Positions 17,719 through 64,000 of a DNA stretch of 64,000 nt are shown here, piece after piece; position 1 is the first letter of the stretch, and each line of letters starts with the position of its first letter. Both the position numbers and the translations under genes were made by a program. The notes under the pieces are model-generated. The model was not told the DNA's origin. It did not search any database and was given only the letters and a program-made list of their open reading frames with translations. The stretch lies in the NCBI GenBank assembly GCA_964584335.1, contig CAZOZN010000002.1, forward strand, positions 8,025-72,024. Direction: 5' to 3'. Origin of the DNA: an uncultured archaeon (GTDB taxonomy: Archaea > Aenigmatarchaeota > Aenigmatarchaeia > PWEA01 > JAGHBM01).

Positions 17719-17719
17719 G

Positions 17720-21789: not shown

Positions 21790-22248
21790 ATGGATATAAA
21801 AAACAAGACCAAAATGGCAGCAAGCATACTGAAATGTGGAATTAAAAAAGTTTGGATAGACCCGAACGAAATGGAAGAGGTGTCTAAAGCCATAACAAAG
21901 GCGGATATAAGAAATCTAATAAAAAAGGGTATAATTAAAAAAAGGTCGCTTAACGAACAAAGCAGAGGCAGGGCAAGGAAGATATTAAGGCAAAAAAAAC
22001 TAGGTAGAAGAAAAGGAAGAGGAAAAAAGAAAGGAAAGAAACTCTCAAAGACTACAAAAAAGAAGGAATGGATAAAAACAATAAGACCGCTCAGAAAAAA
22101 GCTAAAAGAACTAAGAGACTCTGGTAGTATAGACAAAAACCAATATAGAAAACTCTATTTAATGGCAAAGGGTGGCAGGTTCAAAAACAAATCAAATTTA
22201 AATCTTTACATAAAAAACAACATTGGAGTCAAACAAGAAAATAAGTGA
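21790..22248 (+). CDS. rpl19e: Ribosomal protein eL19.
   Basis: AASILKCGIKKVWIDPNEMEEVSKAITKADIRNLIKKGIIKKR is eL19. Confidence 0.9.
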   Translation: MDIKNKTKMAASILKCGIKKVWIDPNEMEEVSKAITKADIRNLIKKGIIKKRSLNEQSRGRARKILRQKKLGRRKGRGKKKGKKLSKTTKKKEWIKTIRPLRKKLKELRDSGSIDKNQYRKLYLMAKGGRFKNKSNLNLYIKNNIGVKQENK

Positions 22249-22744
22249 TTTTATGAGAAAAAAATACAAAATGCCCCACAAAAGAAGAAGACTAAAGAGA
22301 ACTAACTATAAATTAAGACTTGGTCTGCTCAAGAGCAGTAAAAGCAGGCTTGTTATAAGAAAATCAAACAAGCATATAATGGGGCAAATAGTAAAATATG
22401 AAAAAAACGGAGACAAAACAATAATCTCAGCTCATAGTATTATGTTGAAAAAGCTTGGATGGGAAAAAAACTGCAGTAATGTTCCAGCTGCCTACCTGAC
22501 AGGTTTTTTCTTGGGAAAGAAAGCAAAAGAAAAAAATATAAACGAGGCTGTCTTGGATTTGGGGCTTCAAAATAACACAAAAGGTAATAGAATATATGCC
22601 TTCCTAAAGGGAGCTCTAGATGCCGGGTTGAAAATAAATCATTCAAAGGATGTAATACCAAAAGAAGAAAGAATATCAGGTGAACACATAAACAAAGATA
22701 TAGTAAAAGAATTCGAGGCATTAAAGAATAAAATAATAAAGTGA
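22223..22744 (+). CDS. rpl18: Ribosomal protein uL18 (true start possibly ATG ~22253).
   Basis: RRRLKRTNYKLRLGLLKSSKSRLVIRKSNKHIMGQIV is the archaeal L18 N-terminus. Confidence 0.85.
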   Translation: MESNKKISDFMRKKYKMPHKRRRLKRTNYKLRLGLLKSSKSRLVIRKSNKHIMGQIVKYEKNGDKTIISAHSIMLKKLGWEKNCSNVPAAYLTGFFLGKKAKEKNINEAVLDLGLQNNTKGNRIYAFLKGALDAGLKINHSKDVIPKEERISGEHINKDIVKEFEALKNKIIK

Positions 22745-33606: not shown

Positions 33607-35004
33607 GTGAGGGTGTACAAAAAAGCTGTTTTTTACTTGGGAATAGCATTAATATTTTCAATATTTATTTCTCCATTTTCACTTGCAGATATAAATGTCG
33701 ATTTGAAGACCGACAACCTTTACCTTTCTCCTGGTTCCTATCTGTTACAAATAGAAGGAGAGGAGGGTGAAGACTACGGAGTAACTTCAATAGGTCCTTA
33801 CAGAAGCTGGGTGTTATTCGAGAATGACTACGTCTCAACAAAAAATGGAAAAGGAGAAGTAAATTTTTCAATATATTTGCCTGAAAAAGCAAAGGCGGGT
33901 TCTTATAAATTTCCTATACTAGTTTACAAAATGTCTAACAGCTCGGTATACTCCATAGAAAATTACAAGCTTATAATAGAAGAAAAAACAGAAGCAAAAA
34001 TAATGGATTTAGAAATAAACAAAGACTCTTTCAGTCCTGGAGATAAAATAAAAATAAACACAACATTGAAAAACACAGGAACGTCCGACCTTGAAGAATT
34101 GAATTTATTAATAGAATATCAGGGACCTGATTTTTATGAGAAAGAAGAAAAAACGTTTTCTCTGTACGTAGAAGAAGAAAAAAGTTTTGATGAAGACTTT
34201 GAAACATCTATAAATCAAAACCCGGGAGAATATAAGATATTAACTACTATGTCTAAGTTTGGTAAAAAATTGGACTCAAAAACAAGAATATTTGAAATAC
34301 AAGAAATCGGTAAAATAAAGAAAACCCATGAATCATCTTGGAGAGTATTGCAAGAATCAGGAGAATTTAGACTAGAAAACACAGGAAATATAGAAAAAGA
34401 AGAAGAAATACAGATGGAAATAACAAAACCATGGGATTGGTTTATATTCTTCTCAGAAATGCCAGTCATAAAAGACGAAGGAACAAAGATGTCTTACTCT
34501 TGGAAAATGAGTTTAAAACCGGGAGAATCAAAGAACATAAGTTATAACATTCATTATTGGCCATTCGTAATAATAGCAATAGTTCTTATATACGGAATTT
34601 ATTTAGCATCAAAACAAATAAGAAAACCGAACATAAAAAAACATTCTATAGAAACCAAAGTTTTAGACGATGACAGAAAAGAAATAATGGTTGCAATAGA
34701 AATAAAGACTTGCGGAAAGAAGATGAAAGATGTCGTAATAAAGGACAGGATACCGCCGATGGGTAATGTAATTAAAAAATATTTCAAAACCATAAAACCC
34801 ACAGTAAGTAAACAAGATAACGGCACAATTTTAAGATGGAAAATAAAGAACCTAGAAAAAAATGAAAATATAATACTAACATATAAATTCAGGACATCAA
34901 TTGGAACCACTGATTATATAAAATTGCCAAAAGCTGTTCTAAGTGCTAAAATAAACAAAGTATATACGGAATATTTCTCAAATTCTCTTAAAATAAAAGA
35001 ATGA
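33607..35004 (+). CDS. Secreted/membrane-anchored protein with signal peptide, CARDB-like beta-sandwich segment and a mid-protein TM helix; GTG start.
   Basis: N-terminal hydrophobic signal (AVFYLGIALIFSIFISPFSLA); KIKINTTLKNTGTSDLEELNLLIEY is CARDB-like; TM WPFVIIAIVLIYGIYLA; Lys-rich tail. Confidence 0.45.
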   Translation: MRVYKKAVFYLGIALIFSIFISPFSLADINVDLKTDNLYLSPGSYLLQIEGEEGEDYGVTSIGPYRSWVLFENDYVSTKNGKGEVNFSIYLPEKAKAGSYKFPILVYKMSNSSVYSIENYKLIIEEKTEAKIMDLEINKDSFSPGDKIKINTTLKNTGTSDLEELNLLIEYQGPDFYEKEEKTFSLYVEEEKSFDEDFETSINQNPGEYKILTTMSKFGKKLDSKTRIFEIQEIGKIKKTHESSWRVLQESGEFRLENTGNIEKEEEIQMEITKPWDWFIFFSEMPVIKDEGTKMSYSWKMSLKPGESKNISYNIHYWPFVIIAIVLIYGIYLASKQIRKPNIKKHSIETKVLDDDRKEIMVAIEIKTCGKKMKDVVIKDRIPPMGNVIKKYFKTIKPTVSKQDNGTILRWKIKNLEKNENIILTYKFRTSIGTTDYIKLPKAVLSAKINKVYTEYFSNSLKIKE

Positions 35005-35040: not shown

Positions 35041-35163
35041 CCCCGGATAGCTCAGCGGTAGAGCGGTCGGCTGTAGACTCATACTAAAAGTATTAGTTGA
35101 ATAGCAATCGTTCAAAAAGCAGGAACCGACAGGTCCTGTGTTCGAATCACAGTCCGGGGACCA
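35041..35163 (+). tRNA. tRNA-Tyr(GTA) with a 47-nt intron at the canonical anticodon-loop position (37/38); encoded CCA.
   Basis: Acceptor CCCCGGA/TCCGGGG, discriminator A; D-arm GCTC-AGCGGTA-GAGC; anticodon stem GTCGG, loop CTGTAG|intron|A, 3' stem CCGAC; T-arm CTGTG-TTCGAAT-CACAG. Confidence 0.75.
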
Positions 35164-35318
35164 AAATTATAATTATAAATAACTACAAAAAAGTAAAAAA
35201 TCGACTGTTTTCTTTATGACGAAATCTGAGAGGTGCCCAATAAAGGCTCTAGATGGTAAATAAGAGTATATTTAAACTAACCGAAAGCTTTTTAAAGGTT
35301 TTCATACTAATAGTAGAC

Positions 35319-35433
<115 letters not shown>

Positions 35434-35548
35434 ATCAATAAATCATGTTCACTTGGGGTCGATAAGATTTTAATGAAAAAAATTAGCCTGTTAGAATTAC
35501 CTATTTAAAGCTTTATAACTAACATTTAGAGTTAACTATTAAAAATTT

Positions 35549-35647
35549 GCCCCGGTAGTGTAGCGGTCTAGCATACGGCCCTGTCGGGACCCTCAGTAAA
35601 GTTGCGGTAAGGCTGTGACCCGGGTTCGAATCCCGGCTGGGGCGCCA
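35549..35647 (+). tRNA. Class-I tRNA (99 nt) with a ~23-nt intron in the anticodon loop; best model is tRNA-Asp(GTC).
   Basis: Acceptor GCCCCGG/CTGGGGC (one G-U), G, CCA; D-arm GTGT-AGCGGTCTAGC-ATAC; candidate anticodon stem CGGCC, loop CTGTCG|intron 35587-35609|A, GGCTG; variable TGAC; T-arm CCGGG-TTCGAAT-CCCGG. Confidence 0.5.
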
Positions 35648-35653
35648 AAGATT

Positions 35654-35742
35654 GGGCCTATAGCTCAGCCTGGTAGAGCACCGGCCTTTTAACATTAGAG
35701 GAAAGCCGGGTGTCGAGGGTTCGAATCCCTCTGGGCCCGCCA
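35654..35742 (+). tRNA. tRNA-Lys(TTT) with a 12-nt intron at 37/38.
   Basis: Acceptor GGGCCTA/TGGGCCC, G, CCA; D-arm GCTC-AGCCTGGTA-GAGC; anticodon stem CCGGC, loop CTTTTA|ACATTAGAGGAA|A, GCCGG; variable GTGTC; T-arm GAGGG-TTCGAAT-CCCTC. Confidence 0.65.
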
Positions 35743-42999: not shown

Positions 43000-43248
43000 A
43001 TGGACAAAATAAATGAAAATGAAATAAAAAAATTTATAAAGGAAAGGGAGTATCTGTGCGGTTATAAGCAGGCAAAAAAGGCGCTAAAAGACGGTAAAGC
43101 GGAAAAAATAATAATTGCAGGTAAGAGTATCGGTAAAGAGGAATTTAAAGATTCTTTAATATTCGAAGGTAATTCTAAACAACTTGGGATAGCATGCAAC
43201 AAACCATTCAGCATTTCAGTATTAACAATTTTAAAAGAAAGTAGATAA
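43000..43248 (+). CDS. rpl30e: Ribosomal protein eL30 (short form).
   Basis: L7Ae/L30e-like fold signature (KAEKIIIAGKSI...); conserved position after rpoA2. Confidence 0.65.
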   Translation: MDKINENEIKKFIKEREYLCGYKQAKKALKDGKAEKIIIAGKSIGKEEFKDSLIFEGNSKQLGIACNKPFSISVLTILKESR

Positions 43249-43249
43249 T

Positions 43250-43654
43250 ATGATAAAAAGTTTCGACATGCAAACAATTGGTCTAATAAACACTTTTGAA
43301 AAAAATACAAAAGTATCTGTACTTGATTGTATATTCGATGAAAAGAATATATATTTTCTTGTGGAGTTTGGCAAAGCCGGTAAAGCTATAGGAAAAAATG
43401 GAAAAAACATAAAAAAAATGCAAAATAGCTTAAAAAAGCAAATAAAGGTATTCGAGTATAACAAAAAACCAAAAAAGTTCATAGAGAACATGATACCAAA
43501 CAGCTCAGTAGAAATAAAAGATTCAGCAAAAGCATCGGTAAAAATAGACCCAAAAGAAAAAGGAAAAATAATAGGAAGAATGGGTTGTAATATAAACAAA
43601 ATAAGAGAACTATTGAAAAGAAATTCAGAAATAAAGACACTTGAAATAAAGTAA
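43250..43654 (+). CDS. nusA: Archaeal NusA-like transcription termination factor (two KH domains).
   Basis: Two KH GxxG motifs (AIGKNGKNIKKM; IIGRMGCNINKI); canonical position after L30e. Confidence 0.7.
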   Translation: MIKSFDMQTIGLINTFEKNTKVSVLDCIFDEKNIYFLVEFGKAGKAIGKNGKNIKKMQNSLKKQIKVFEYNKKPKKFIENMIPNSSVEIKDSAKASVKIDPKEKGKIIGRMGCNINKIRELLKRNSEIKTLEIK

Positions 43655-43694
43655 TATTTTAATATATTCTTATAAAAATAGTATAGAAATAATT

Positions 43695-43853
43695 GGGCCC
43701 ATAGCTCAGCCTGGTAGAGCACTCGGCTCTTAACCGAGTTGTCGAGGGTTCGAATGAGCCTTTCTTCAAAAGAAAGCCTCAAGGGAAAGAACTTGGAAAA
43801 CTCTCTGAGTTTTCCCATGCTTAAATCCTAAGAAAATCCCTCTGGGCCCGCCA
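43695..43853 (+). tRNA. tRNA-Lys(CTT) with an ~82-nt intron in the T-loop (about 59/60).
   Basis: Acceptor GGGCCCA/TGGGCCC, G, CCA; D-arm GCTC-AGCCTGGTA-GAGC; anticodon stem CTCGG, loop CTCTTAA, CCGAG; variable TTGTC; T-stem GAGGG; T-loop TTCGAA(T) interrupted by 43756-43837 before CCCTC. Confidence 0.75.
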
Positions 43854-46288: not shown

Positions 46289-46541
46289 CGTTTATGGAAA
46301 GGTTCAGGGTGTTTTTTTTAGGTATAACACAAAAAAGGCAGCAGAAAAACTAGGGATAAAAGGCTGGGTAAGAAACATTAAAGATGGTAGCGTGGAAATA
46401 ATAGCAGAAGGAGAAAAAGAAAAAATAAAAGAATTTACAGAATGGATTAAAAAAAGCCCTGGTTCTTCTGTAGTGAAAAAAATAGACATAAAAGAAGAAA
46501 AAACAAAAGAAAAGTTTTCCGGTTTTAGCATCCGCCTGTAG
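46272..46541 (+). CDS. acyP: Acylphosphatase.
   Basis: VYGKVQGVFFRYNTKKAAEKLGIKGWVRNIKDGSVEIIAEGEKEKI is the acylphosphatase signature (V.G.VQGV.FR / GWVRN..DGSVE). Confidence 0.75.
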   Translation: MKTKINVYGKVQGVFFRYNTKKAAEKLGIKGWVRNIKDGSVEIIAEGEKEKIKEFTEWIKKSPGSSVVKKIDIKEEKTKEKFSGFSIRL

Positions 46542-47628
46542 ATGAAGCGCTTCCGCTGCCCGATCCTATTGGACCAATTCCAGGATCTTCTGTCAGGTCG
46601 CTCAAAGTCTGGTCACATTCTTCAGGTGGATTTGTAAATGCTGAACATATTGTGTTCTTTATTGCCTCTGCAGATCTACCGACGCTTACAGTTTTTCCAT
46701 TTACAACGAAAGTAGGAGAACCTCTAACACCGTACTCCTCATTCAAATCACTTTCTACTGGGAACTGAGGAAATCTTCCTCCTGACCAGGTATTTTCATC
46801 ATTGTAAAGACCTGTTATATTGTATTCATTATCAGTACTTTGTATACAGGTTTCTAGCTTTGATTTATCCACACCTGATTCGCTGATGCAACTTTCATAA
46901 TCATCTGTCTCTACAAAACATCTAAGATAGTCGCTAAACTTATCTTTCTGTTCTTTCTGTATGCAATACATCCTCAAATTCTCATCCAATTCCTCCTTGC
47001 CGTGCATCGCATAATCTACAAAGTTTAACATAACGTCAGCTTTATCGCCTAACAATTCTATAACCGGTATATAAGCCTTCATGAATTGAAGACCGTAAGG
47101 ACAATAAGACATTACAAAAGCCTGCGCCTTGGGTTCATCTGTTTTTGGAATATCTTCCTGTTGCTGTTGTTCCTCTTGCTGCTGTTCTTCCAAAGCCATC
47201 TCAACTTCAGTAATATTCACTGCTTGAGGGAAAAATATCTCCGCATTCTTTGTAACATAAGAATCAACGTTCTGTGTCTGTGAACCGCTTTTTACTTCAA
47301 TAACTACTTTGTAAAGCCCTAGTTCTTCTTTTACTTCCTTAACGCTTATTTCTACTCCCGGACCAACCATATTTTCCTGTACAAAAGATAAGGCTCTATC
47401 TGACGCGTCTTCAGGGCTTAAGGCTCCCTCGAAATCATCACCGCCAACTATGTTAGAACCACTGCCAATTCCCGTGGCCAATACAATGGCGAGTATTACA
47501 CATAGAGCAACAGAAGCTATTGAAACAGACTTCCATACGCTTTTTACGTACTTCTGTTCCGATTTTGTTTCCTTTTTGTCTTTAAAATTGTCCTCTTCGT
47601 GTTTTCCGCTTTTCTTTTCTTCAGACAT
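46525..47628 (-). CDS. Membrane-anchored extracytoplasmic thioredoxin-fold (DsbA-like) protein with a degenerate active site (CPYG, single Cys).
   Basis: N-terminal K/E-rich region then TM (VSIASVALCVILAIVLATGIG); FVMSYCPYGLQF and RGSPTFVVNGK resemble Trx/DsbA motifs; poly-Q/E linker; C-terminal GSGSGSASS. Confidence 0.4.
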   Translation of the reverse strand: MSEEKKSGKHEEDNFKDKKETKSEQKYVKSVWKSVSIASVALCVILAIVLATGIGSGSNIVGGDDFEGALSPEDASDRALSFVQENMVGPGVEISVKEVKEELGLYKVVIEVKSGSQTQNVDSYVTKNAEIFFPQAVNITEVEMALEEQQQEEQQQQEDIPKTDEPKAQAFVMSYCPYGLQFMKAYIPVIELLGDKADVMLNFVDYAMHGKEELDENLRMYCIQKEQKDKFSDYLRCFVETDDYESCISESGVDKSKLETCIQSTDNEYNITGLYNDENTWSGGRFPQFPVESDLNEEYGVRGSPTFVVNGKTVSVGRSAEAIKNTICSAFTNPPEECDQTLSDLTEDPGIGPIGSGSGSASSTGGC

Positions 47629-53790: not shown

Positions 53791-53892
53791 AAGATAACTG
53801 GGTTTTTAATCAAATAAATAAGTCAAAGAATATTTCTCAGAATATACCTAAAGCTAGATAATAAAAATATAAGAAAAGGAAAATTGGGGGTT

Positions 53893-54840
53893 TTAAGGTG
53901 ATTCTGCTCCTTCTACTGTTACTGTTGTGTGTACGTCTTCAAAGTATCCGTATCTTAACGTAACTGTTACTGGTATGTCTGTCCTTGTGCTGAAATCTTT
54001 AGGATCTAAGTCACAACTGTACGTGAAAGATTGTCCTCTTCTAAGTGTCTGGTCTGTTGGAGTATCGTATGCATCACAATCTGAACCTGAAGCACCGTCA
54101 ACTCCATCCGCATTTATTTCCAATTCAATTATATCCATTTCATCAGATGTTATGTCCAAAGTGCTCATATCATGGTCAGGGTCTATCAGACTTCCTCTCT
54201 CAAGCAAATCAACTGTTATCCTAAAATCTATTGTATCGTCTGCTGGATCGTCCACTACTACTGGTGTTCTTGCAACAATTTCAACAGCAAGAGGACCTTT
54301 TGTTACTTCTGTAGTTACTGGTGGTAAATTTAGCATGTTTCTTTCTCTTAGTCTCTTGTATTCTTCCTTTGTCAAAACTGGTATGGTTGCAGATGCAATC
54401 GTTTCATAATTATACATTAATCTTGCTCTGGGGGTGTACTTGAATACAACTCCCTCTGGTATTCCCGTTGGAGTCTGTAATTCCCATTCAACATCAGCTA
54501 TCTCTCCTGGAATGTCTGCAAGTGTATCAGGCTGTTCAAGCTCTGCTGCAACTTCCTGTGAAAAGTCAGTTGTTCCTGGGTCCCATACGTCCTCATCTAT
54601 ATCATATAAATGAGCCCATACGTCTTCTGCCATAGAACCTCCGACATTTTCGACTTCCATATACAATTCAACATCTTCATTTTCAGATTCATAGTCAGGG
54701 AAGTCAGAGCTGAACTCGTGTATTACAACTCCACCAGCGGTGCTTGTTATTTGTTCATTTCCCATTATTCCTTCTAATCCTACACATCCGCTGGAAAATA
54801 AAACGGTTGCAACCAAGACCAATATTAAAGCTTTTTTCAT
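53893..54840 (-). CDS. Secreted lipobox-bearing protein (signal peptide ...LFSSGC), CARDB-like; paralogue of 54855-55739 and 56567-57547.
   Basis: MKKALILVLVATVLFSSGC; VELYMEVENVGGSMAED beta-sandwich-like; shared EEYKRLRER motif with paralogues. Confidence 0.5.
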   Translation of the reverse strand: MKKALILVLVATVLFSSGCVGLEGIMGNEQITSTAGGVVIHEFSSDFPDYESENEDVELYMEVENVGGSMAEDVWAHLYDIDEDVWDPGTTDFSQEVAAELEQPDTLADIPGEIADVEWELQTPTGIPEGVVFKYTPRARLMYNYETIASATIPVLTKEEYKRLRERNMLNLPPVTTEVTKGPLAVEIVARTPVVVDDPADDTIDFRITVDLLERGSLIDPDHDMSTLDITSDEMDIIELEINADGVDGASGSDCDAYDTPTDQTLRRGQSFTYSCDLDPKDFSTRTDIPVTVTLRYGYFEDVHTTVTVEGAESP

Positions 54841-54854
54841 TATATTATTCCTCC

Positions 54855-55739
54855 TTAATTTGGTTTTACTTCGATATTAATAGTTTTGTAGTAGTTATAT
54901 ATATAATTTGCCTCGGCCTTAAATTGTCCTTTTTCCCTTACATCGACCGAGCCAACCGTAAATTTGCATGTGGCCTTCTTTGTCCTGCCGTTCTTAAACT
55001 TGAGTGGCGTGTTTAAAATCATCTGCCCTCCCCCAGCAGTAAAATCGTTGCACTGAGGGTTTATCAAGAAATCAGGGTATTCGATAACTAAATCAGTTCC
55101 TGAAATCTCTTCTTCCGGCATACCGCTTCCCCTGTTTATTAACTGTACGTAAAAATATAATTCCAAACCCTCGTACAGCGGCTGGGGTTTTGATATAGAC
55201 AAATCTATTTCAACTGGTGTCTTGGTCTTATAATAGTAAAGATTTATCTCTCCTGTTCTTCCCTGTCTTTCAAGTCTGCCGTATTCTTCTTCTGTCATTG
55301 CTATGACATCGTACATAGAAGAAGCCTTGGATTTGTAATTAACCCTGTACCTTAAAGTTTCCCTTTGACTTGAATGTATTTCATCAGAAAGGTCTAGCTT
55401 CCACTCCCAATTTTCCATATCGCCCTCTTCCATCTCGATTATATATTCGCTGGTAGCACCTAAAGAAGTAAAATCAACCAAATCTGTCATCTCGACATTT
55501 ATATCCTCTAGAGTCGTGTTTCCAGAGTTATACAAGTCAAAATACAATATGGTGCTCTTACCTTCATAAACCACATTAGGTATTGCTTCAACATCTACAT
55601 CTAAATCCTCATATTGATTATATTTTGGCTCATCGGGTCCCATATCAAGTCCCAATTGAGAAAAAACATCACCGCCTGTTATACAACCAGAAGTAAGTAA
55701 TACTAAAGATAAAAACAAAATTAGAAAGTAACTCTTCAT
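54855..55739 (-). CDS. Secreted lipobox-bearing protein (signal peptide ...LLTSGC), CARDB-like; paralogue.
   Basis: MKSYFLILFLSLVLLTSGC; STILYFDLYNSGNTTLEDINVEMTD; EEEYGRLERQGR motif. Confidence 0.5.
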   Translation of the reverse strand: MKSYFLILFLSLVLLTSGCITGGDVFSQLGLDMGPDEPKYNQYEDLDVDVEAIPNVVYEGKSTILYFDLYNSGNTTLEDINVEMTDLVDFTSLGATSEYIIEMEEGDMENWEWKLDLSDEIHSSQRETLRYRVNYKSKASSMYDVIAMTEEEYGRLERQGRTGEINLYYYKTKTPVEIDLSISKPQPLYEGLELYFYVQLINRGSGMPEEEISGTDLVIEYPDFLINPQCNDFTAGGGQMILNTPLKFKNGRTKKATCKFTVGSVDVREKGQFKAEANYIYNYYKTINIEVKPN

Positions 55740-55778
55740 AACTAAATTATAGAAAGTGTTCTTTTTAAATGTTCTGCA

Positions 55779-56132
55779 TTAACCCATCCCGAAAGGTTCT
55801 ACACAGCCACAAGCTCTCGCGACTTTCCTTATGTTATCTTTATCACTACAATCAAATTTTGAAAAATCTTTTTTTTCTATTGAAGAATAAGAACAACAAA
55901 GTTCGTAAGGTATCTCGTCTCCCTTGCAATTAGTCCTTGCCCAGGAAACACATAAAGAATTAAAGTCCTGTTTTTGCCTGTATATATCCAAGCCCGGTGA
56001 AAAGGTACCCATAAAGAAAATAAAAGTCGCAGCGAGAAAAACACCACCTGATATAATTATAATTAATTTTTCCGAGGTGATTATAACTCCCTTCATGTTA
56101 ACCACTATAACAAAAGAAAAATAAAAGAACAA
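55779..56132 (-). CDS. Pilin-like small secreted protein with class-III (type IV prepilin-like) signal peptide and Cys-rich C-terminal domain. Start probably at the internal Met near 56096.
   Basis: MKG|VIITSEKLIIIISGGVFLAATFIFFMGTF then C.SWARTNC ... ARACGCVEPFG; paralogous to 56144-56512. Confidence 0.4.
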   Translation of the reverse strand: MFFYFSFVIVVNMKGVIITSEKLIIIISGGVFLAATFIFFMGTFSPGLDIYRQKQDFNSLCVSWARTNCKGDEIPYELCCSYSSIEKKDFSKFDCSDKDNIRKVARACGCVEPFGMG

Positions 56133-56143
56133 AATGGGTTATG

Positions 56144-56512
56144 CTAGTATGTAAAGTCACGACCAAATGGTTTTAGACAGTTACAGGCTTCAGCGACTAC
56201 TTCGTACCTAGTATCTATACTAGTATCTGGTACATAACCGACACCAGTCATGTTGTGGTAAGCTTTTGCTACATTATCAGGCATTCCTAGACTATCAGTA
56301 CTTTCCACACATCCAGCTGTACCTATAGTACAATTATCACAATTAGATAAGGCCCAGCTTTGGCACTTAGAGTTAAAGTTCTGCTGTAATGTCTGCTGTT
56401 GTGCTGTGGGTCCGAAAGCACCCATAAACCAAGCAACTGCTGCTAGTAACACTATTATTGCCACTGCTAACATAACCAAAGTGTTTATTGGTATTGAAAC
56501 TCCTTTTTCCAT
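56144..56512 (-). CDS. Pilin-like small secreted protein with class-III signal peptide and Cys-rich C-terminal domain.
   Basis: MEKG|VSIPINTLVMLAVAIIVLLAAVAWFMGAF (K-G then ~25 hydrophobic residues); C.SWALSNC ... AEACNCLKPFG. Confidence 0.45.
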   Translation of the reverse strand: MEKGVSIPINTLVMLAVAIIVLLAAVAWFMGAFGPTAQQQTLQQNFNSKCQSWALSNCDNCTIGTAGCVESTDSLGMPDNVAKAYHNMTGVGYVPDTSIDTRYEVVAEACNCLKPFGRDFTY

Positions 56513-56566
56513 TTTTATCTCCTTTTTATTAATTTATTTAACTTATTTAAATACTTTTTTCATTTC

Positions 56567-57547
56567 TTAATCCATAGTATATGTTGGTTTTATTGTAACC
56601 ATCCTTTCCTCATATAGAGGATAAACATAATCCTCTAATTTTGCGACAGCCTTGTATGTCTTTATATCACTAATATCAGCAGATTGTAAGTCACATCTTA
56701 TAGGAGGAGATACTCCTTTTATTAAAGGTATGGGTGCATCGTTAACTATTTCTGTGTCACTGACCACGTTTATCCAATTTACAGGATGGCATGAGTTAAC
56801 AGTAAGACCGTTATCAAATTCAACACTAAACACACCAGAAGGAACTTCTTCATACATACCACTTCCTTCATCATGAATTCTGATTATTGCTGGTATAACT
56901 AAGTTTTCATCCACTGGTTGTTGGGTTTCAAAAAGCATTTCTATTTTTAATGGTCCTCTTGACTGTGTCTGAACTGGAGTAATTGATATTTTCTCTCCAG
57001 CCCTATTTGCATTTATTAATCTATCATGGTCAATAACGGCTATATCCGAGGTCGTGTAGGAATCATATTCATATTCAACCTTAAAACGTATTGGACACTT
57101 CCCTTCCATTCTCCCCAGGTCTTCGTTAGTAGGTGCCTTGAATTGCCATTCAACAAGTTCGGCGCCTCCTCCAGGATAAATTGTAGCACCTCCTATATCA
57201 TTGCTTATATCCACTTCATCACATCTACCCCAGTCATAAACAGTTGCATATACATCTTCAGCGGCTTTTGCGCCCTCATCTGTGAGTCCTATATTGGTTA
57301 CTATAAAAGAAATCGTGAAAGTAGAATCTGTAGTTTCAGTAGATGCAGAAACGGGCGGATTAGGTATTACCTCTATATCTTCTACCACAATAACATCAGT
57401 AGGAGCTTTTACTGTTTCAGTCTCAACTATACCAAGAGATTCGAAAACAGATTGCATACCGCCTCCCTCAACACAACCTGAAACAAAAATAACAGGAGAT
57501 AAAATAAAAACAATACTCAAAACAGACAAAATTTCCTTTAAACTCAT
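56567..57547 (-). CDS. Secreted lipobox-bearing protein (signal peptide ...IFVSGC), CARDB-like; paralogue.
   Basis: LSVLSIVFILSPVIFVSGC; TFTISFIVTNIGLTDEGAKAAEDVYATVYD; DHDRLINANRAGE motif. Confidence 0.5.
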   Translation of the reverse strand: MSLKEILSVLSIVFILSPVIFVSGCVEGGGMQSVFESLGIVETETVKAPTDVIVVEDIEVIPNPPVSASTETTDSTFTISFIVTNIGLTDEGAKAAEDVYATVYDWGRCDEVDISNDIGGATIYPGGGAELVEWQFKAPTNEDLGRMEGKCPIRFKVEYEYDSYTTSDIAVIDHDRLINANRAGEKISITPVQTQSRGPLKIEMLFETQQPVDENLVIPAIIRIHDEGSGMYEEVPSGVFSVEFDNGLTVNSCHPVNWINVVSDTEIVNDAPIPLIKGVSPPIRCDLQSADISDIKTYKAVAKLEDYVYPLYEERMVTIKPTYTMD

Positions 57548-57593
57548 TTCACCACCTTTAATTTTTAATTTTTTGAATATAAAAGTTTCTTAT

Positions 57594-60191
57594 TTATTTT
57601 ACACATTTTCCGTTGCTACATCCATTTGGACAATTATGTAAGTTTCTTGTTGCACTGCCACCTTCACAAACAGCTTCAGCAAGATTAGTTGCAGAATCCA
57701 AACAATCTCCACCAGAACTTTCCATACAACAATCATTATAAGTCGTATCTCCCTCAGTAGCTCTGGATTTTCTATAATAGTTATAACCACCATCATAATC
57801 CGTACAGTTAACGTCAACATAATTATTACTGTTACACTTTCCATTACTGCAACCATTCATACAATTGTAATTATGACTTGATACAGAATCTCCATCACAA
57901 TCCCACTCGGTCAACTGATCACCACTACATGAATCAGTATGTCCTATACCATCGGTTCCTGTTGCAGTTCCTTTGTTAAAGTGGTCTGGGCCGTTATCGC
58001 TATCCGTGCAAGATGATCCCCCGTCTCCACTATCTCCATCATCACCTTCAGAGGGTTCCCTACAATCTACCATATTCCAAGAACCACATAAACTTGAACA
58101 AGCACTGTTTCCACTACCGCACTCATAAATTCTAAGAGTTTTCATCTGCCCACTAGTTGGATCTTGACATATACATTCCATATAAGACCCAAAACTAACT
58201 TTCATTTTATTTTCAATTTTATCAACATAAGTATAATTAACCAAACCAGTCAATGCAAAAGTTTTCTGCTCTACGTCTATATTAGGTATCCTTGATATAC
58301 ATATAGCCTTTACAGGTTTTCCTATTGTTTCGTTTCCGTCCATGTACTCAGCCAAGCCTCTTAACTTCAAATCATTATCATCTCCAAGACTTGGTTCACA
58401 ATAAGTATCTTCTGTTCCCTCTATATCGCTAACATCAACTCTTGCATATTTTATATTATCAACATAACCATTAGCTACATTTTCCAAATAAAGCATAACC
58501 GGAACTTCCTCCAAATCATCTCTTACCGGCATGTTGTTTCTCATTAAAGCAATACCAAGTCTTACAGGACCACCAGTATCTTCTGTAACTTGTTCCTTTA
58601 CATCCAATTTGCCGTTTCTATCAAGCCTATAATAATAAGATTTATTCATTATCATTACATCTACAAGACCTTCAACACTCAAGTCATAACTTATATTTAC
58701 ACCGTAAGAAACATAATTACCACTAACAAGATTATCAATATTATATCTAAGAACTATTTCACGCATCTCTCCTGGTATTAATTTAGGTAAAGGACAACTT
58801 GGATTTGCTGTATTTCCATCTTCACATGTCATACTAACCGTACCAGCAAGAATCCTTTCCTCTTCCAAAGTACCCTGTGTATAGTATGGTTCTATTGGCG
58901 TTATACTTATATCATAAGCACTCCTGTCACCTTTATTTTCTATCCTACCAATAATCAAAACCTCGCCGGGTTTTTCTATATTTTCGTTACCGAAAATTTG
59001 TAAATCGGTTACCTCAACTGCTTTTATACTTCTCTTGGTATAAGTTTTTGGTTTATAATCCTGATAACATGCTATAGGATTAGCAAGACAAGAATAACCA
59101 TATCCTAATGTTCCCAAAGGAGACCCTAGATTTTCCATTATAGGTCCCGCTATCTGGTCTATGTTATAATCAATTGTAGGCCACCAGTCACCAAAAACAG
59201 CTTCTCCCATTATATCAGGGTAAGCTATTGCTGTGCTTGCAAGAGCAACAACAAGTATTGGTACGCCTATGAAAGTTTTTGCCTTGTCCACGGGGACGGA
59301 AGCGAGTATTCCCAAACCAACAACTGATGAGAATATTACAAAACCAACAAGACTGCTAGTGCCTGACTGTCCTAAGAACGAAACTGAACTAAGTGCAAGA
59401 CCGCCTCCACCAAGAGCGCCCAGTATTATACCATTTACGTTTCTACCCAACAAAAAACCAATACCCACCGAAACCGCAGCCATGACAATCCCGATTCCAA
59501 TAGTGAAAAACTTAGTTAAATCAACAGATATGTCAGGAGCTGTAATAGAAAGTAAAAAAACTACCAAAGTAACAAAAACAAGGATAATAACAAGATACAT
59601 AAAAAATTTTCCAATCTGACCAGCGTCTTTCTCCCCGGCAGATCTTCTAACACCTTCACTTAATCTTTCCCCAACTTCGTAAAATTTTTGAAGCATTTTT
59701 GCTGAGACATCATTTCTACCCTGAACATCAACGGATGGTATAGTTATGAAAAATCCTGAAGCAATTAAAATAAGAGACCAAAACAAAGTCGGATTGCTTG
59801 AGCTAATATCTGAAAATATGTATCCGAATGTGATTACCATTAAAATTCCTAAAATCATTTTCAAAACAGAAAGACCGACTTCCTCGTCTGAAGAAACGCT
59901 ATCAGAAGGCGAGCTCATTATTCCAACAGAAAGAACAAATAATGGTATAAACTTCAAAAACGGGAGAGGACCAAACATCAATAATGTCCCCAAGCTCAAA
60001 AAGATGAAACCACAAGACCTGAAAAAAGCCCTTACATAACCTATATACTCAAATGAATCAATGTTAAAAACAGAAGTGGGTTTTTCAGGATGATAACCTC
60101 CCTGATCTAACAAACCCGGTTTTTCAGCATGACAAATAGGACAAGGATAGCTACTTATTTCCTCTCCGCAGTTGAAACATCTCTTTGTCAT
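57594..60191 (-). CDS. Large polytopic membrane protein: N-terminal cytoplasmic Zn ribbon, ~8 TM helices, large extracytoplasmic CARDB-like domain, Cys-rich C-terminus with duplicated C(x)NGCSNGKC motif.
   Basis: 865 aa; CFNCGEEISSYPCPIC; multiple long hydrophobic segments (residues ~60-330); C-terminal YNCMNGCSNGKC and HNCPNGCSNGKC; 36 Cys in the last ~230 aa. Confidence 0.55.
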   Translation of the reverse strand: MTKRCFNCGEEISSYPCPICHAEKPGLLDQGGYHPEKPTSVFNIDSFEYIGYVRAFFRSCGFIFLSLGTLLMFGPLPFLKFIPLFVLSVGIMSSPSDSVSSDEEVGLSVLKMILGILMVITFGYIFSDISSSNPTLFWSLILIASGFFITIPSVDVQGRNDVSAKMLQKFYEVGERLSEGVRRSAGEKDAGQIGKFFMYLVIILVFVTLVVFLLSITAPDISVDLTKFFTIGIGIVMAAVSVGIGFLLGRNVNGIILGALGGGGLALSSVSFLGQSGTSSLVGFVIFSSVVGLGILASVPVDKAKTFIGVPILVVALASTAIAYPDIMGEAVFGDWWPTIDYNIDQIAGPIMENLGSPLGTLGYGYSCLANPIACYQDYKPKTYTKRSIKAVEVTDLQIFGNENIEKPGEVLIIGRIENKGDRSAYDISITPIEPYYTQGTLEEERILAGTVSMTCEDGNTANPSCPLPKLIPGEMREIVLRYNIDNLVSGNYVSYGVNISYDLSVEGLVDVMIMNKSYYYRLDRNGKLDVKEQVTEDTGGPVRLGIALMRNNMPVRDDLEEVPVMLYLENVANGYVDNIKYARVDVSDIEGTEDTYCEPSLGDDNDLKLRGLAEYMDGNETIGKPVKAICISRIPNIDVEQKTFALTGLVNYTYVDKIENKMKVSFGSYMECICQDPTSGQMKTLRIYECGSGNSACSSLCGSWNMVDCREPSEGDDGDSGDGGSSCTDSDNGPDHFNKGTATGTDGIGHTDSCSGDQLTEWDCDGDSVSSHNYNCMNGCSNGKCNSNNYVDVNCTDYDGGYNYYRKSRATEGDTTYNDCCMESSGGDCLDSATNLAEAVCEGGSATRNLHNCPNGCSNGKCVK

Positions 60192-60198
60192 ATTATCA

Positions 60199-61575
60199 CT
60201 AAATTTTACTCAAGCCGAAAAATATTATTCCCACTCCTATTAGTGTTGCCCCCAGCTGGTTTGTGTATGGGCCCAAGACCAAAGATACCAAAAGACCTAA
60301 AACCAAAGATGTTACAATAGGAGTTATAGATGAATGCAAAATGCCCACACTAGTACCTTCCAAGCCTTTCTTATCTGGATAAAAATCATACCCAGATCCT
60401 ATAAAACCGCACGAATTGCATGCAATTTTACCATCGGCGTCATATCTTAAATTATGGGAACCGCATTTGGGGCATTTTCCTCCACTTGGTTTTTCTCGAT
60501 TTGTTGTCTTTTTATCTTTTTCCTCATCTTTTTTCCTTTGAGACTCTATTTTTTTCTCCGTCATATCGAAAAACTTACCTGATTGTTCCAAAGCTTTTTC
60601 TTTCTCTAACTTTTTCTCAGTTTGTTCAAAAAACTTTCCGGTATCTTTCAGAGCTTGATCATACTCATTTCTCTGTAAATCAAGCAATTTTTTTCTTGCT
60701 CTTTCATTTTCTTTTTCAGTCCTTTCAAACCAATCACCGGCCTCTTTGTAAGCAGCCGGTATTTTTTTCTTTTCTCTTCGTGTAGAAACTCCACTATCCT
60801 TTCTCCTAATTAATTTACCAATACTAGGTTTTTCATATTTTTTTGAACTATATTTTTTCAATAGATCTTTGGATACATTAGGAGGTTTATTCATATCCCC
60901 GACAGACTTAGATTCAACTCTTTTTCTGTGTCTTTCCTTTTCAGCCTCTCTTTCCAACAAAAATTTATTCAATATCTCGTACTGTTCCTCGGTTATCTTG
61001 CCTTCGTCAGCAAAAACTCTTATAAGCAGCCTTAAACTACTAAAATCTTCAAGTTGTGAATTAGAAATAATATTTTTTAATTTTACAACGGCTTTTGAAC
61101 CCAAGACTTTTTTCTTTCTAAGTGCTTCTTCTTTTTTATTCAAAAATTCAAACAAATAATTTATATCATTATTACTAAGACCGGGTGATTTGGATATTAT
61201 ATCATTTAACAACTGGTCTCTGTCTACGTTTCCTTTGTTGATTTTTTTAACATGTTTCTTAACAAAATTCCCGGGTCTTGTATCCTGATATGCTTCGGCT
61301 TCATAAGCTACCCATCTCATAGCCTTGTTTAATTCACTTCTCAGCTTTTCAAGCTCATAATCACTAAATTTATCAATATTATTTGTTATTTTCTCTCTGC
61401 AATATTTCAATTTGTTCATGTCTTTATTAGAAACGGCACTCTTTATCTGCTTTGATATGTGTTTATATTCGCTTCCCATTCCTTCACCTGAGGGTGCTCT
61501 TTTTATATTTAAGTTATTGGATTTCCTATTTTTAAGCTTTTTTTCTTTTATAACAATTCCTTTGTTTTTAATCAA
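60199..61575 (-). CDS. Tail-anchored membrane protein: long K/E-rich coiled-coil cytoplasmic region with three G(K/D)(F/W)FE.TEK repeats, a Zn ribbon (CPKCG...CNSCG), and two C-terminal TM helices.
   Basis: 458 aa; repeats GDWFERTEKENERARKK / GKFFEQTEKKLEKEKA / GKFFDMTEKKIESQRKK; C-terminal ITPIVTSLVLGLLVSLVLG and LIGVGIIFFGL. Confidence 0.5.
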   Translation of the reverse strand: MIKNKGIVIKEKKLKNRKSNNLNIKRAPSGEGMGSEYKHISKQIKSAVSNKDMNKLKYCREKITNNIDKFSDYELEKLRSELNKAMRWVAYEAEAYQDTRPGNFVKKHVKKINKGNVDRDQLLNDIISKSPGLSNNDINYLFEFLNKKEEALRKKKVLGSKAVVKLKNIISNSQLEDFSSLRLLIRVFADEGKITEEQYEILNKFLLEREAEKERHRKRVESKSVGDMNKPPNVSKDLLKKYSSKKYEKPSIGKLIRRKDSGVSTRREKKKIPAAYKEAGDWFERTEKENERARKKLLDLQRNEYDQALKDTGKFFEQTEKKLEKEKALEQSGKFFDMTEKKIESQRKKDEEKDKKTTNREKPSGGKCPKCGSHNLRYDADGKIACNSCGFIGSGYDFYPDKKGLEGTSVGILHSSITPIVTSLVLGLLVSLVLGPYTNQLGATLIGVGIIFFGLSKI

Positions 61576-61615
61576 AGATAATCTTAATCACAGATATTGC
61601 TCCAATTTTTATATT

Positions 61616-62803
61616 TCATAAATCAACATGGAAATCTGATATAGTGTAGCCACCGCTTCCTGTTACCGAGAATATTACCTTGTTTTCACCAACCCCTGCA
61701 TAGTTCTTAGGAAGCCTCAAGCTTATGGTATTTCCCTCGTCAAGAACACCCTGCACAACAAGAGAATGTTTGTCTCCGTCAGGATTTTCTACAGTAGCTA
61801 CAAGAGAAGTTGGTGTTTCAAATATTTTCTCTATCTTGAATTTTATTTCTCCCGGTAATCTTCTATGTTGAGAACCGGTCAAGTAGAAATTCATTTCAAG
61901 TTCTTCCGAAGCCTCTCTATCCCAGAATATAATTATTTCCGCATCTCTTGCTGTAAATTCGGTTCCCCTTTCAGAAGACATTTCAATCAAGTTATCTCCT
62001 TCTCTTATTATGTCTTCAAAATCAATCCACTGTATAAACCTGGGTGTATCGCTGAAAACATTTACCCCATTAACATTAACAAAAAGTTTTCCGTCACCTT
62101 CTATTTCGTCAAAATTAATTATAATTCTTCCCAGATTTACCGGTGTTTCTTTTTCGCCTACATAAAAATTGAAACTTTGTGATACTGTTCCAACAAAGTC
62201 ACTCTTCAGCTCAAGGTTCCTTAACTTATATACAGTGGGAGCCCACATTCTCCAGCCGCTGGACTCCGAAGTAACCAAAAATTCATTATCTTCTGAGAAA
62301 AAACTAATATCAATAGGTATTTCAAAACTTTCTCCGGTTTTAAGTGGCTCTGAGAAAATCTCTTTACCGTTTAAACCAAAAATCAATCTTCCGTAAAGAT
62401 TTGTATCGTATACTTCTCCCAAAAGAGAAACAGATTTCATCTTGTTCAAATCATCCTCGGTGAGAGAAAATATTTTATTATATTCTTTCGATTCGAGTAT
62501 GCCGTTTTTAACTGTCAACTCATCCTCTTGTATAAAAGATTTCTTCTCTGTTACATAACTTATTTTGAAGGGTTTTCTCATAAGATATATGTGCCTCAAA
62601 TCTTCAACTTCTCTGGTACCCACAAAATCATCTTCCGGTAGATTTATTTCGGGCTCGCTGACAGAACGATTGCTTCTCTCCGGAGGCACAAACCTGTAAC
62701 TTGGACCAACAAGAAAATTACCACCATCCATCATCATGTAAAAACTAAAAAAAAGCAAGATACCTACTATAAAAACCTTTGTAAAATACGGGATTTTTCC
62801 CAT
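61616..62803 (-). CDS. N-terminally anchored (signal-anchor TM) extracytoplasmic protein, unknown function.
   Basis: 395 aa; TM VFIVGILLFFSFYMM then an acidic beta-rich domain. Confidence 0.5.
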   Translation of the reverse strand: MGKIPYFTKVFIVGILLFFSFYMMMDGGNFLVGPSYRFVPPERSNRSVSEPEINLPEDDFVGTREVEDLRHIYLMRKPFKISYVTEKKSFIQEDELTVKNGILESKEYNKIFSLTEDDLNKMKSVSLLGEVYDTNLYGRLIFGLNGKEIFSEPLKTGESFEIPIDISFFSEDNEFLVTSESSGWRMWAPTVYKLRNLELKSDFVGTVSQSFNFYVGEKETPVNLGRIIINFDEIEGDGKLFVNVNGVNVFSDTPRFIQWIDFEDIIREGDNLIEMSSERGTEFTARDAEIIIFWDREASEELEMNFYLTGSQHRRLPGEIKFKIEKIFETPTSLVATVENPDGDKHSLVVQGVLDEGNTISLRLPKNYAGVGENKVIFSVTGSGGYTISDFHVDL

Positions 62804-62862: not shown

Positions 62863-63906
62863 ATGAAGCTGTTAAATGGTGAAATAATGAAGATACTTAA
62901 AAAAGACTTAAAGAAAGGTCTGGTAAAAGTTAAAATAGAAACACCGGATGACGCATGGAAATTAGAAAGTTTACTTGAAGAAGAGGATTTGATTAGTGCA
63001 AAATCTCCAAGAAGTATCGAAATATTAAGAGGCGACAAAAAAGAAAAGGCAGGCAAAAAATTGTTTTTTATCAAAATTTCTCTTGAAAAAAAAGAATTTC
63101 ACGAATACTCAGGTAAGCTAAGACTTACTGGAAAAATAATAGAAGGTCCTGATAATACACTGGGTTCTTATCACACGATAACAGCAGAAGAAGGAAAAAT
63201 AATAAACATAGAAAAAAACTGGAAAAAATGGCAGATAGAAAAGCTTAAAAAATCTTTGATAAAACAACCAAGATTATTGATATGCATAATGGATGAAAGA
63301 AAATCATCTTTTTTTGAAGTAACTGATAAAATAAAAAAAATATCTGACATAAATAACGAAAAACCGGGCAAGCAATTTGGTGAAAGTGACTCAAAAAAAT
63401 ATTTTAAAGAGATAATTAATTTCTTAAAAAACAAAAAAGATTATGAGAAGATTATACTGGCAGGTCCCGGATTTACAAAAGAAGACCTTTATAAAGAAAT
63501 AGATGGAAAAAACATAGAAATTAAAAAAAACATAAGTGTTGCATCTTGTTCACATGCAGGTGAAAACGGATTACAGGAAATAATAAAAAAAGGTGTTATA
63601 GATAAAATAACCAGAGAATCTAGGATTAGCTTTGAAACAAGAATAGTGGAAGATTTTTTTGATGAATTAAGTAAGGAAAATTCAATTGTTACTTACGGCA
63701 AGAACGAAGTAAAGGAGGCTGTTGAAATGGGTGCGGTAGAAAAACTTCTTGTATCCGAAAAAGAACTGAAAAAACACGAGAAACTAATGGATGAAGCCGA
63801 AAGAAAAGGAGCAGAAATATTGATAATATCAGAAGAACACGAATCAGGACAAAAATTATCCAGGCTGGGTGGTATAGCTGCCTTTCTAAGATTTAAAATA
63901 AATTAA
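62863..63906 (+). CDS. pelA: Pelota/Dom34-like mRNA surveillance factor (eRF1-fold).
   Basis: N-terminal Sm-like domain (VKVKIETPDDAWKLESLLEEEDLISAKS), central ILAGPGFTKEDL, C-terminal eRF1 domain 3 (LLVSEKELKK...AEILIISEEHESGQKLSRLGGIAAFLRFKI). Confidence 0.8.
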   Translation: MKLLNGEIMKILKKDLKKGLVKVKIETPDDAWKLESLLEEEDLISAKSPRSIEILRGDKKEKAGKKLFFIKISLEKKEFHEYSGKLRLTGKIIEGPDNTLGSYHTITAEEGKIINIEKNWKKWQIEKLKKSLIKQPRLLICIMDERKSSFFEVTDKIKKISDINNEKPGKQFGESDSKKYFKEIINFLKNKKDYEKIILAGPGFTKEDLYKEIDGKNIEIKKNISVASCSHAGENGLQEIIKKGVIDKITRESRISFETRIVEDFFDELSKENSIVTYGKNEVKEAVEMGAVEKLLVSEKELKKHEKLMDEAERKGAEILIISEEHESGQKLSRLGGIAAFLRFKIN

Positions 63907-64000
63907 AATTCTATGTATAGTTTACCGTCTTTCTTTCTTACTATACCCTTTATTACACCCCTTCCTTCATAGCCAGCGTGCCTACACAAGCCGCTTATCT
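63903..64000 (-). CDS. 3' end of a minus-strand CDS running off the right window edge (C-terminus ...GYEGRGVIKGIVRKKDGKLYIEF*); function undetermined.
   Basis: Open frame on the minus strand from the window edge to TAA (complement of 63903-63905), convergent with pelota. Not in the ORF track because it is truncated. Confidence 0.3.
   Translation of the reverse strand, partial: ISGLCRHAGYEGRGVIKGIVRKKDGKLYIEF

Follow-up and report, generated by a model that had tools for sequence, protein, structure and literature searches.

The 64,000-nucleotide stretch of archaeal DNA analysed here (contig CAZOZN010000002.1; hereafter the window) carries on its minus strand, from position 62803 down to 53893, a row of eight genes (g1 to g8 in order of transcription) that is best read as encoding a conserved, uncharacterised membrane-anchored surface complex together with two small type IV pilins. 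Our explanation, which we hold tentatively and with somewhat less than even confidence, is that the genes form an operon specific to Aenigmarchaeota, which encodes a membrane-anchored envelope complex of several subunits along with pilins, for the assembly of which the machinery would lie elsewhere. The original prediction had described an operon-like cell-surface cluster and a candidate machine for building an appendage. The first part of this description is supported by co-conservation and by synteny in about ten independent loci. The second part is not supported for the cluster itself, which has no NTPase and no likeness to a TadC/FlaJ platform or a prepilin peptidase, and whose pilins are dispensable.

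The limits of the eight open reading frames (ORFs) agree with those originally given, and their common orientation and short gaps (7-54 nt) were correctly recognised. The first gene, g1 (61616-62803), encodes an N-terminally anchored extracytoplasmic protein of 395 aa with three beta jelly-roll domains of a carbohydrate-binding module (CBM) or galactose-binding-like type. It is followed by g2 (60199-61575; 458 aa), a K/E-rich, coiled-coil-like cytoplasmic protein with a Zn ribbon and a membrane hairpin, and by g3 (57594-60191; 865 aa), a polytopic membrane protein composed of four parts. Downstream lie g4 (56567-57547; 326 aa), with a signal peptide, a VSGC lipobox and a two-beta-sandwich ectodomain; the type IV pilin-like g5 (56144-56512; 122 aa), in which MEKG and VSIPINTLVMLAVAIIVLLAAVAWFMGAF precede a small globular domain; g6 (55779-56096; 105 aa), a divergent second pilin-like protein that begins with MKG and VIITSEKLIIIISGG; the TSGC lipobox protein g7 (54855-55739; 294 aa); and the SSGC lipobox protein g8 (53893-54840; 315 aa), the most acidic of them (21% D+E). 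Shine-Dalgarno-like GGAGG or GGTG sequences are found upstream of g1, g4, g5 and g8, a T-rich tract 3' of g8 forms a putative terminator before the next gene, a major facilitator superfamily (MFS) transporter, and a 59-bp spacer separates g1 from the divergently transcribed Pelota gene. Scans of all eight proteins against Pfam-A and NCBIfam (orthologues with extra domains were included) gave nothing above threshold and only sub-threshold matches to a Zn ribbon, Pilin_N and CARDB, and profile searches of the Protein Data Bank (PDB) with alignments of g3, g1 and the pilins gave no significant match (best E 0.26). The components are thus unannotated, as had been supposed, and their membrane and secretion features are confirmed by hydropathy and motifs, with corrections to g2, g3 and g6.

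Related loci (L001 to L016) were obtained by exact look-ups and pattern scans of genome and metagenome collections and mapped by BLAST and family hidden Markov models (HMMs). About ten independent loci show the order Pelota (on the opposite strand), g1, g2, g3, g4 (single or duplicated), one to three pilin genes, g7 and g8; it is found whole or partial, as the contigs extend, in L001 (= L002, L005), L003 (= L004), L006, L008/L009, L010, L011, L012 and L013, and L007 carries it in part. In the most distant lineage, represented by the soda-lake contigs L014 and L016 (g1 about 32% identical), the core g1...g3-g4-g7-g8 is kept, unrelated cytoplasmic genes are inserted after g1, and no pilin gene but only a 10-bp gap is present between g4 and g7. 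Since the pilins are missing there while the core stays, they appear to be an addition to an older core of five families (g1, g2-g3, g4, g7 and g8). The nearest named relatives of the cluster proteins are all metagenome-assembled genomes (MAGs) of Candidatus Aenigmarchaeota/Aenigmatarchaeota or of an unclassified 'archaeon'. The gene set co-occurs across related genomes, and no homologue was found in a characterised pathway, both of which are in accordance with the cluster as it was first proposed.

The membrane part of the cluster is encoded by g2 and g3. In g2 a CxxC...CxxC ribbon occupies residues 365-392 (nt 60400-60483); its match to a TFIIB-type Zn ribbon (residues 367-390) is sub-threshold (E 3.4e-4, 20.6 bits vs a cut-off of 29) and recurs in orthologues. 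The C-terminal hydrophobic segments (residues 412-458) correspond to a two-helix membrane hairpin (nt 60202-60342), for which the orthologues give the consensus ...HSSxT..IFGS.FG.LGT..IG.GIIFLGLSK(I/L) at the very end of the protein. Conservation is confined to the last ~100 aa in orthologues of 239 to 834 aa, and the start of g2 itself is ambiguous (TTG at 61575 or an ATG 32 codons downstream). The protein had been described as a tail-anchored Zn-ribbon protein: the Zn ribbon, the K/E-richness and the C-terminal hydrophobicity are real, but the anchor is a conserved two-helix hairpin and not a single tail anchor.

According to its hydropathy g3 possesses ~9 transmembrane (TM) segments followed by an ectodomain of ~540 aa, and it contains 31 Cys. 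Its four parts, all on the minus strand, are an N-terminal CxxC-x8-CxxC knuckle that is not conserved (nt 60132-60179), a domain rich in Gly and Pro with about 9 TM helices (nt ~59211-60029), a conserved juxtamembrane motif with a two-beta-sandwich ectodomain homologous to g4, g7 and g8 (nt ~58152-59210), and a variable Cys-rich C-terminal repeat module (nt 57597-58151). Two features ascribed to this protein are consequently true in part: a cytoplasmic Zn ribbon is present here as the knuckle, which is peculiar to this genome (some orthologues have other N-terminal Zn ribbons), and the 'huge Cys-rich ectodomain' is Cys-rich only over its C-terminal ~185 aa, a module that is absent in two of six homologues. 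Only six relatives of g3, none with a precomputed Pfam domain, were found among 5.8 billion proteins; their alignment reveals the invariant motifs AYPDxMG, WWPxIDY and EQxTEDTGGPVR. The AlphaFold2 model has an overall predicted local distance difference test score (pLDDT) of 57.5 and reaches 60-84 in the ectodomain, which consists of immunoglobulin (Ig)/macroglobulin (MG)-like sandwiches matching transglutaminase barrels, MG domains of alpha-2-macroglobulin, integrin calf domains and Ig domains of Gram-positive pili. A GT-C glycosyltransferase, with the invariant D102/E104 in a first extracellular loop, was considered for g3 and dropped, because nine TM segments in an N-in/C-out topology would make that loop cytoplasmic.

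In L011 the N-terminus of g3 is joined to the g2 module of Zn ribbon and hairpin (g2 HMM, E 1.6e-8), and the hairpin keeps the topology consistent in such a fusion. The same is apparently true of L012, where no separate g2 gene exists and g3 has an N-terminal Zn-ribbon extension. The g3 of L014 (14050-18885) is divided between TM4 and TM5. As a side observation, the architecture of g3 is plastic: besides the fused forms (L011:124-2760 and, apparently, L012:8960-12019), the g3 of L016 (15380-18721) has an N-terminus extended by ~480 aa with CarboxypepD_reg-like repeats before the first TM segment and no signal peptide.

The ectodomain of g3 and the three lipobox proteins g4 (FVSGC), g7 (LTSGC) and g8 (FSSGC), all three predicted lipoproteins by the signal [LVI][ASTG][GAS]C, are on sequence evidence paralogous: HMMs made from g7 or g4 orthologues only recognise the ectodomain of g3 in other genomes, with E values of 1e-6 to 3.5e-12, the reverse search does likewise, and all four can be aligned over ~290 positions. 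A profile of these four window paralogues, run against 1.84 billion representatives, retrieved 978 clusters at a threshold of E<=1e-3 (316 at E<=1e-10), for the most part of 290-330 aa. In an alignment of 108 members, conservation is 90% or more for the Gly-Cys of the lipobox and for a Cys pair further on, and no member falls into a Pfam family; those checked that carry a name all come from Aenigmarchaeota or an unclassified 'archaeon'. The family is large, has no Pfam model and, so far as names go, is specific to this lineage. A few members bear added LamG, sialidase-lectin, Big_5 or CARDB-like modules. The match of g7 itself to CARDB (PF07705) is sub-threshold (16.6 bits vs a cut-off of 22.7) and CARDB is found at E<=0.001 in none of the 108, while the g4 orthologue of L005 has a true CARDB domain (50.2 bits) as a C-terminal extension. 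Some relatives possess two copies of g4, and g7 orthologues are 42-55% identical.

The best-conserved gene of the cluster is g1, with long invariant motifs and an identity of 60-66% to most orthologues, comparable to the 58-67% of Pelota; such conservation fits a part of a machine and not a variable adhesin. Hydropathy gives a single N-terminal TM segment (residues 7-25), and the structural model, built from 22 homologues (pLDDT 84.7), shows an N-terminal helix, a disordered linker and three beta jelly rolls that resemble CBM, BcsB-CBD (the carbohydrate-binding domain of BcsB) and PNGase-F in structure comparison. The 22 homologues were retrieved from 5.8 billion proteins, and none carries a precomputed Pfam domain. 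Glycans would probably be bound by g1, whether those of the cell's own heavily glycosylated giant surface protein or those of a partner cell.

The claim of two pilin-like proteins is well founded: both have the class III motif, the hydrophobic N-terminus is near-invariant, and a sub-threshold match to Pilin_N recurs. In g5 (MEKG followed by VSIPINTLVMLAVAIIVLLAAVAWFMGAF) and g6 (MKG followed by VIITSEKLIIIISGGVFLAATFIFFMG) a basic N-terminus with a class III signal precedes about 25 hydrophobic residues. The family N-terminus, M(K)KG and then VSIPINTLVMLAVAIIVLLAAVAWFMGAF, is nearly invariant for ~30 residues over 34 members, the remainder being ~50% identical; in these 34 sequences conservation reaches at least 90% at K3, G4 and the helix after them, and four Cys are invariant. 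Pilin_N (PF07790) is the commonest match (29 of the 34), always below threshold (best E 0.0076), and g5 with 16.9 bits vs a cut-off of 25.2 (E 0.012) falls outside formal Pfam membership; its 33 homologues among 5.8 billion proteins likewise have no Pfam family. We accept g5 and g6 on their motif as credible type IV pilin-like proteins with class III signals. The first is probably a major pilin. The second, which is ~31-33% identical to it and shares the conserved Cys and a C-terminal ACGC.EPFG motif, is probably a minor pilin or variant; the family alignment places its start at ATG 56096 (105 aa) and not at TTG 56132.

Some pilins of related loci are more elaborate. Two orthologues (L011:3808-4299 and L012:13224-13685) have a C-terminal poly-Thr (Thr-rich) linker and a small Cys-knot module, and could represent modular pilins whose tip is adhesive or toxin-like; sub-threshold matches to conotoxin- or ion-channel-toxin-like Pfam families occur in several members of the family. 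In L007 a group of genes at the place of g7 and g8, on the opposite strand (15229-22504, minus), encodes four paralogous proteins of 399-529 aa, one of 504 aa and a pilin-like one of 101 aa, all with class III-type N-termini; masked N runs make a mis-assembly or inversion possible.

Neither a secretion ATPase (PilB/FlaI/VirB11; P-loop, T2SSE) nor a PilC/TadC/FlaJ platform or a prepilin peptidase (peptidase A24) was found in the cluster or in the scanned ORFs of the window, the unscanned ones lying mostly in the presumed ribosomal-protein (~13-24 kb) and RNA-polymerase (~36-43 kb) operons. The absence of a pilus ATPase and platform had been anticipated, and extends to the peptidase. The sole P-loop protein that we found is encoded by a ParA/MinD-like gene at 8619-9368, 45 kb from the cluster, and g3 and its orthologues do not match T2SSF/TadC (PF00482) at E<=1; nor does g3 match another Pfam family. 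We therefore consider it distinctly unlikely that the eight genes form a self-contained novel pilus or appendage system, in which g3 would be a non-homologous platform and g1, g2 and the lipoproteins assembly or alignment subunits for a filament of g5 and g6. Such a system would explain why pilin genes lie within the operon at most loci, in one to three tandem copies, and why in L007 five large paralogues with class III signals and one further small pilin are encoded beside the cluster. In principle, a polytopic protein that has a Zn-ribbon partner in the cytoplasm might connect with a motor there, and S-layer-like Ig proteins and additional membrane proteins are frequent in the archaeal type IV pilus (T4P) loci that have been published (PMC4858521). 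However, besides the missing NTPase, platform and peptidase signals, the core persists in L014 and L016 without pilins in the cluster, and the TM domain of g3 lacks large cytoplasmic domains of the PilC/FlaJ kind. On our preferred reading, that of an envelope complex, the pilin genes would have been inserted into the operon in one sub-lineage, and the cluster would not itself power pilus assembly. The products of g5 and g6 would be co-expressed passengers: a class III signal peptidase would process them, and machinery of the FlaI/FlaJ type, with its genes at some other place in the genome, would polymerise them. Homologues of FlaG, FlaI and FlaJ have been reported for most Aenigmarchaeota MAGs (PMC8407114), and archaeal pilin genes are commonly found outside ATPase/TadC loci (PMC4858521).

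The location of the proteins was approached through N-glycosylation sequons (N-x-S/T), counted against a composition-based expectation. The ratio of observed to expected is 0.62x in the lipoprotein family (163 vs 263), 0.43x in the pilin family, 0.79x in g3 orthologues and 1.1-1.2x in the g1 family, compared to 2.4-3.5x in giant proteins adjoining Pelota and about 2.1x (117 vs 56 expected) in a subtilase-containing giant of the window. As indirect proxies, these statistics suggest that the cluster proteins are membrane-proximal or buried. A highly conserved core with sequon-poor lipoproteins and pilins is more readily reconciled with a machine or scaffold close to the membrane than with an adhesin that is exposed and evolves fast.

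A better candidate for the exposed glycoprotein coat is the giant gene (871 to over 5000 aa) that is convergent with Pelota in every related locus (L001:3-4592, L003:1-6477, L014:1-8922, L016:1-8911, L007:2535-5150), and its product is a candidate S-layer or major surface glycoprotein. In the window, off the right end of which this gene runs, its last 32 codons are present (about 63905-64000, minus) and match the conserved C-terminus. The L007 protein, of type I membrane topology and heavily provided with sequons, has Thr-rich linkers, a C-terminal TM segment and a conserved cytoplasmic tail of ~90 aa ending ...GYEGxGxIEGxVRxKxxxxYIEF; conservation of such a tail is unusual. That the cluster is itself the S-layer, made of lattice-forming surface proteins, is the least probable explanation of those weighed here. 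Its proteins are acidic, extracytoplasmic, Ig-like and multi-domain and are conserved through the lineage, and S-layer genes have been reported in Aenigmarchaeota without detail (PMC8407114). But the lipoproteins are small (~300 aa), predicted to be lipid-anchored and depleted in sequons, four paralogous subunits with a 9-TM protein are not an S-layer architecture, the codon adaptation index (CAI) is not elevated, and the neighbouring giant, with its sequon excess, Thr-rich linkers and C-terminal TM segment, is by far the better candidate.

We propose the following arrangement for the envelope complex. The membrane scaffold would be g3, with its about 9 Gly-rich TM helices, on which g2 would dock through its membrane hairpin, supplying a cytoplasmic Zn ribbon and a coiled-coil arm. 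Outside the membrane, the g3 ectodomain with its two sandwiches and the lipid-anchored g4, g7 and g8 would build a hetero-oligomeric, membrane-proximal array, to which g1, held by its N-terminal helix, would contribute three CBM-like jelly rolls that are probably glycan-binding. The complex would probably be situated at the membrane surface under a glycoprotein canopy, as a structural base or an anchoring or contact module of the envelope. Its purpose could be that of an anchoring base for the coat or a pilus, a cell-cell contact module or an uptake device.

Several points weigh against this proposal. Gene order, membrane and secretion features, paralogy, the fusion of g2 with g3, conservation, fold classes and sequon statistics are results of the analysis; the physical assembly of the products, like their sub-canopy location, glycan binding and role in cell contact, is something that we infer, and the sequon depletion is a statistical hint as to location. 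All fold matches are to generic beta-sandwich or jelly-roll domains without functional specificity. The CAI of the cluster genes (0.66-0.76, vs 0.74 +/- 0.04 for ribosomal genes) does not mark them as highly expressed; we dropped codon adaptation as a proxy of expression because it was uninformative. In the complete MAG CP070662.1 (L007), the locus of which contains masked N runs, g7 and g8 were not detected. Furthermore, the wider neighbourhood, including genes for MFS, NUDIX, HD and TtuA proteins, is also syntenic with close relatives, so that the conserved gene order is in part phylogenetic inertia and not decisive alone. This synteny of flanking housekeeping genes, and the lack of a functional domain linking the genes, would be expected if unrelated surface and membrane proteins without a common function had been kept adjacent by slow rearrangement in a small, streamlined genome. 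We nevertheless regard this as very unlikely, given eight consecutive co-oriented membrane or secreted proteins with such short gaps, four paralogous ectodomains in one cluster, and a core kept at ~30% identity despite insertions. The fusion of g2 with g3, the split g3 of L014 and the homology of the g3 ectodomain with the lipoproteins argue that the genes are a functional unit.

A further point against the proposal concerns the TM part of g3, the model of which is unreliable (pLDDT <55), so that g3 may yet be a channel or transporter. In an uptake or transport complex, the lipoproteins and g1 would catch host-derived substrate, such as the glycans or lipids that Aenigmarchaeota are unable to make, and pass it to g3. 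We consider this unlikely, as no ATP-binding cassette or other energising subunit is present, the TM helices of g3 are without conserved charged or polar residues, the lipoprotein folds are Ig/MG-like sandwiches and not of the periplasmic-binding-protein type, and the MFS gene next to the cluster encodes a generic transporter distinct from it.

The window as a whole is a core chromosomal region of low GC content (about 0.33-0.40) from a DPANN archaeon that is close to Aenigmarchaeota. It appears to contain the ribosomal-protein and RNA-polymerase operons, judging from the sizes and order of the ORFs and from the scanned members EF-1alpha, L3 and S8e, and a putative SecY, assigned on position and size alone. 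In five relatives a gene of 408-411 aa with an MJ0043_C domain (PF27218), 75-86% identical among them, directly follows g8 (L003:16161-17387, L001:15333-16568, L009:10111-11334, L011:6350-7570, L012:15731-16951). The window has instead a 102-nt spacer (53791-53892), and tblastn finds no copy in the 64 kb; we judged this gene, absent from the window, to be a neighbouring housekeeping gene and rejected it as a component of the cluster. The subtilase giant mentioned above runs off the left end (3-7784, minus; at least 2594 aa) and combines a subtilase S8 domain (residues 372-584) with NosD/right-handed beta-helix repeats (about 1626-1834), at a GC content of 0.40-0.44, above that of the rest of the window. 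The original prediction had associated this giant protease with the cluster, for which we find no basis beyond both being surface proteins: the two are unlinked and 46 kb apart. Among further features are a stand-alone 5S rRNA gene (35319-35434) flanked by long, intron-containing tRNA genes (region 35041-35742), of which Rfam recognises a 120-nt tRNA (35041-35160) missed by ARAGORN, a tRNA-Asp (99 nt) and a tRNA-Arg (89 nt); a weak tRNA match (33.4 bits) at 43695-43762, overlapping the ORF 43231-43818; and, amid translation genes, a trehalase or MGH1-like glycoside hydrolase (28329-29489, minus; Pfam Trehalase, E 4.6e-91), which is notable for a reduced, DPANN-type genome. An acidic protein of 367 aa (46525-47628, minus) has no Pfam match, and a protein of 465 aa (33607-35004, plus) has only a weak, sub-threshold match to MG2 (macroglobulin).

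Host attachment and the uptake of material from hosts are among the main open questions about DPANN archaea, and the proteins behind the envelope structures seen by cryo-electron tomography (cryo-ET) are mostly unidentified. The cluster offers a concrete, conserved and testable set of candidates for the envelope or contact apparatus of these organisms. Its pilin genes are ordinary in kind; the five-family core is the interesting part, and even if this core were only a structural scaffold of the envelope, it would still be a useful marker and annotation for Aenigmarchaeota genomes.

Comparison with known systems yields only partial likenesses. With BcsB, the periplasmic crown subunit of bacterial cellulose synthase, g1 shares single jelly-roll domains that superpose at a TM-score of ~0.25 and 8-11% identity; BcsB is C-terminally anchored, possesses flavodoxin-like domains (FD) and alternates them with carbohydrate-binding domains (CBD) in the order CBD-FD-CBD-FD, whereas g1 is N-terminally anchored, and no BcsA-type glycosyltransferase or glycosyltransferase family 2 (GT2) gene was found near the cluster. 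The archaellum stator proteins FlaF and FlaG and the S-layer stalk SlaB are monotopic, N-anchored, pseudo-periplasmic beta-sandwich proteins by which a machine in the membrane is connected with the glycoprotein layer at the surface. Their likeness to g1 is conceptual. No sequence or fold match was obtained, g1 with its three jelly rolls is much larger, and the cluster is without archaellum genes.

The archaeal T4P loci surveyed by Makarova et al. 2016 (PMC4858521) share with the cluster small class III pilins, conserved cysteines, tandem pilin duplication, secreted Ig-like and membrane proteins of unassigned role, and a fast evolution that defeats family models. In contrast to them, the cluster and the scanned window have no VirB11/FlaI-type ATPase, TadC/FlaJ platform or FlaK/PibD peptidase, and the core persists without pilin genes in a distant lineage. 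Vice versa, the lipobox anchoring and the paralogy between g3 and the lipoproteins are not described for those loci. The arCOG01314 secretion or membrane-remodelling complex of Makarova et al. 2015 (PMC5898192) is likewise a computational prediction with several Ig-like families and multi-TM proteins. Its markers are a DUF4350/GldG-like anchored protein, a MoxR/GvpN AAA+ ATPase, vWA proteins and COG4743/pfam07760 (PMC5898192); we rejected an identity of the two systems, because none of these families was detected in the cluster or the orthologous loci.

A bolder reading of the five-family core, possible although on balance doubtful, is that of an unrecognised envelope machine, universal in and restricted to Aenigmarchaeota, in which a cytoplasmic Zn-ribbon/coiled-coil arm would be coupled across the membrane to a hetero-oligomeric Ig-like ring with lipid anchors and to a crown that binds glycans. 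Docking or contact, or else the acquisition of host material through a conduit, would be its task, the pilins having been recruited secondarily for reach or attachment. In another DPANN archaeon a barrel-shaped docking platform, itself unidentified, has been seen by cryo-ET (PMC11329633). Were this reading true, the role of the core would be comparable to that of this platform.

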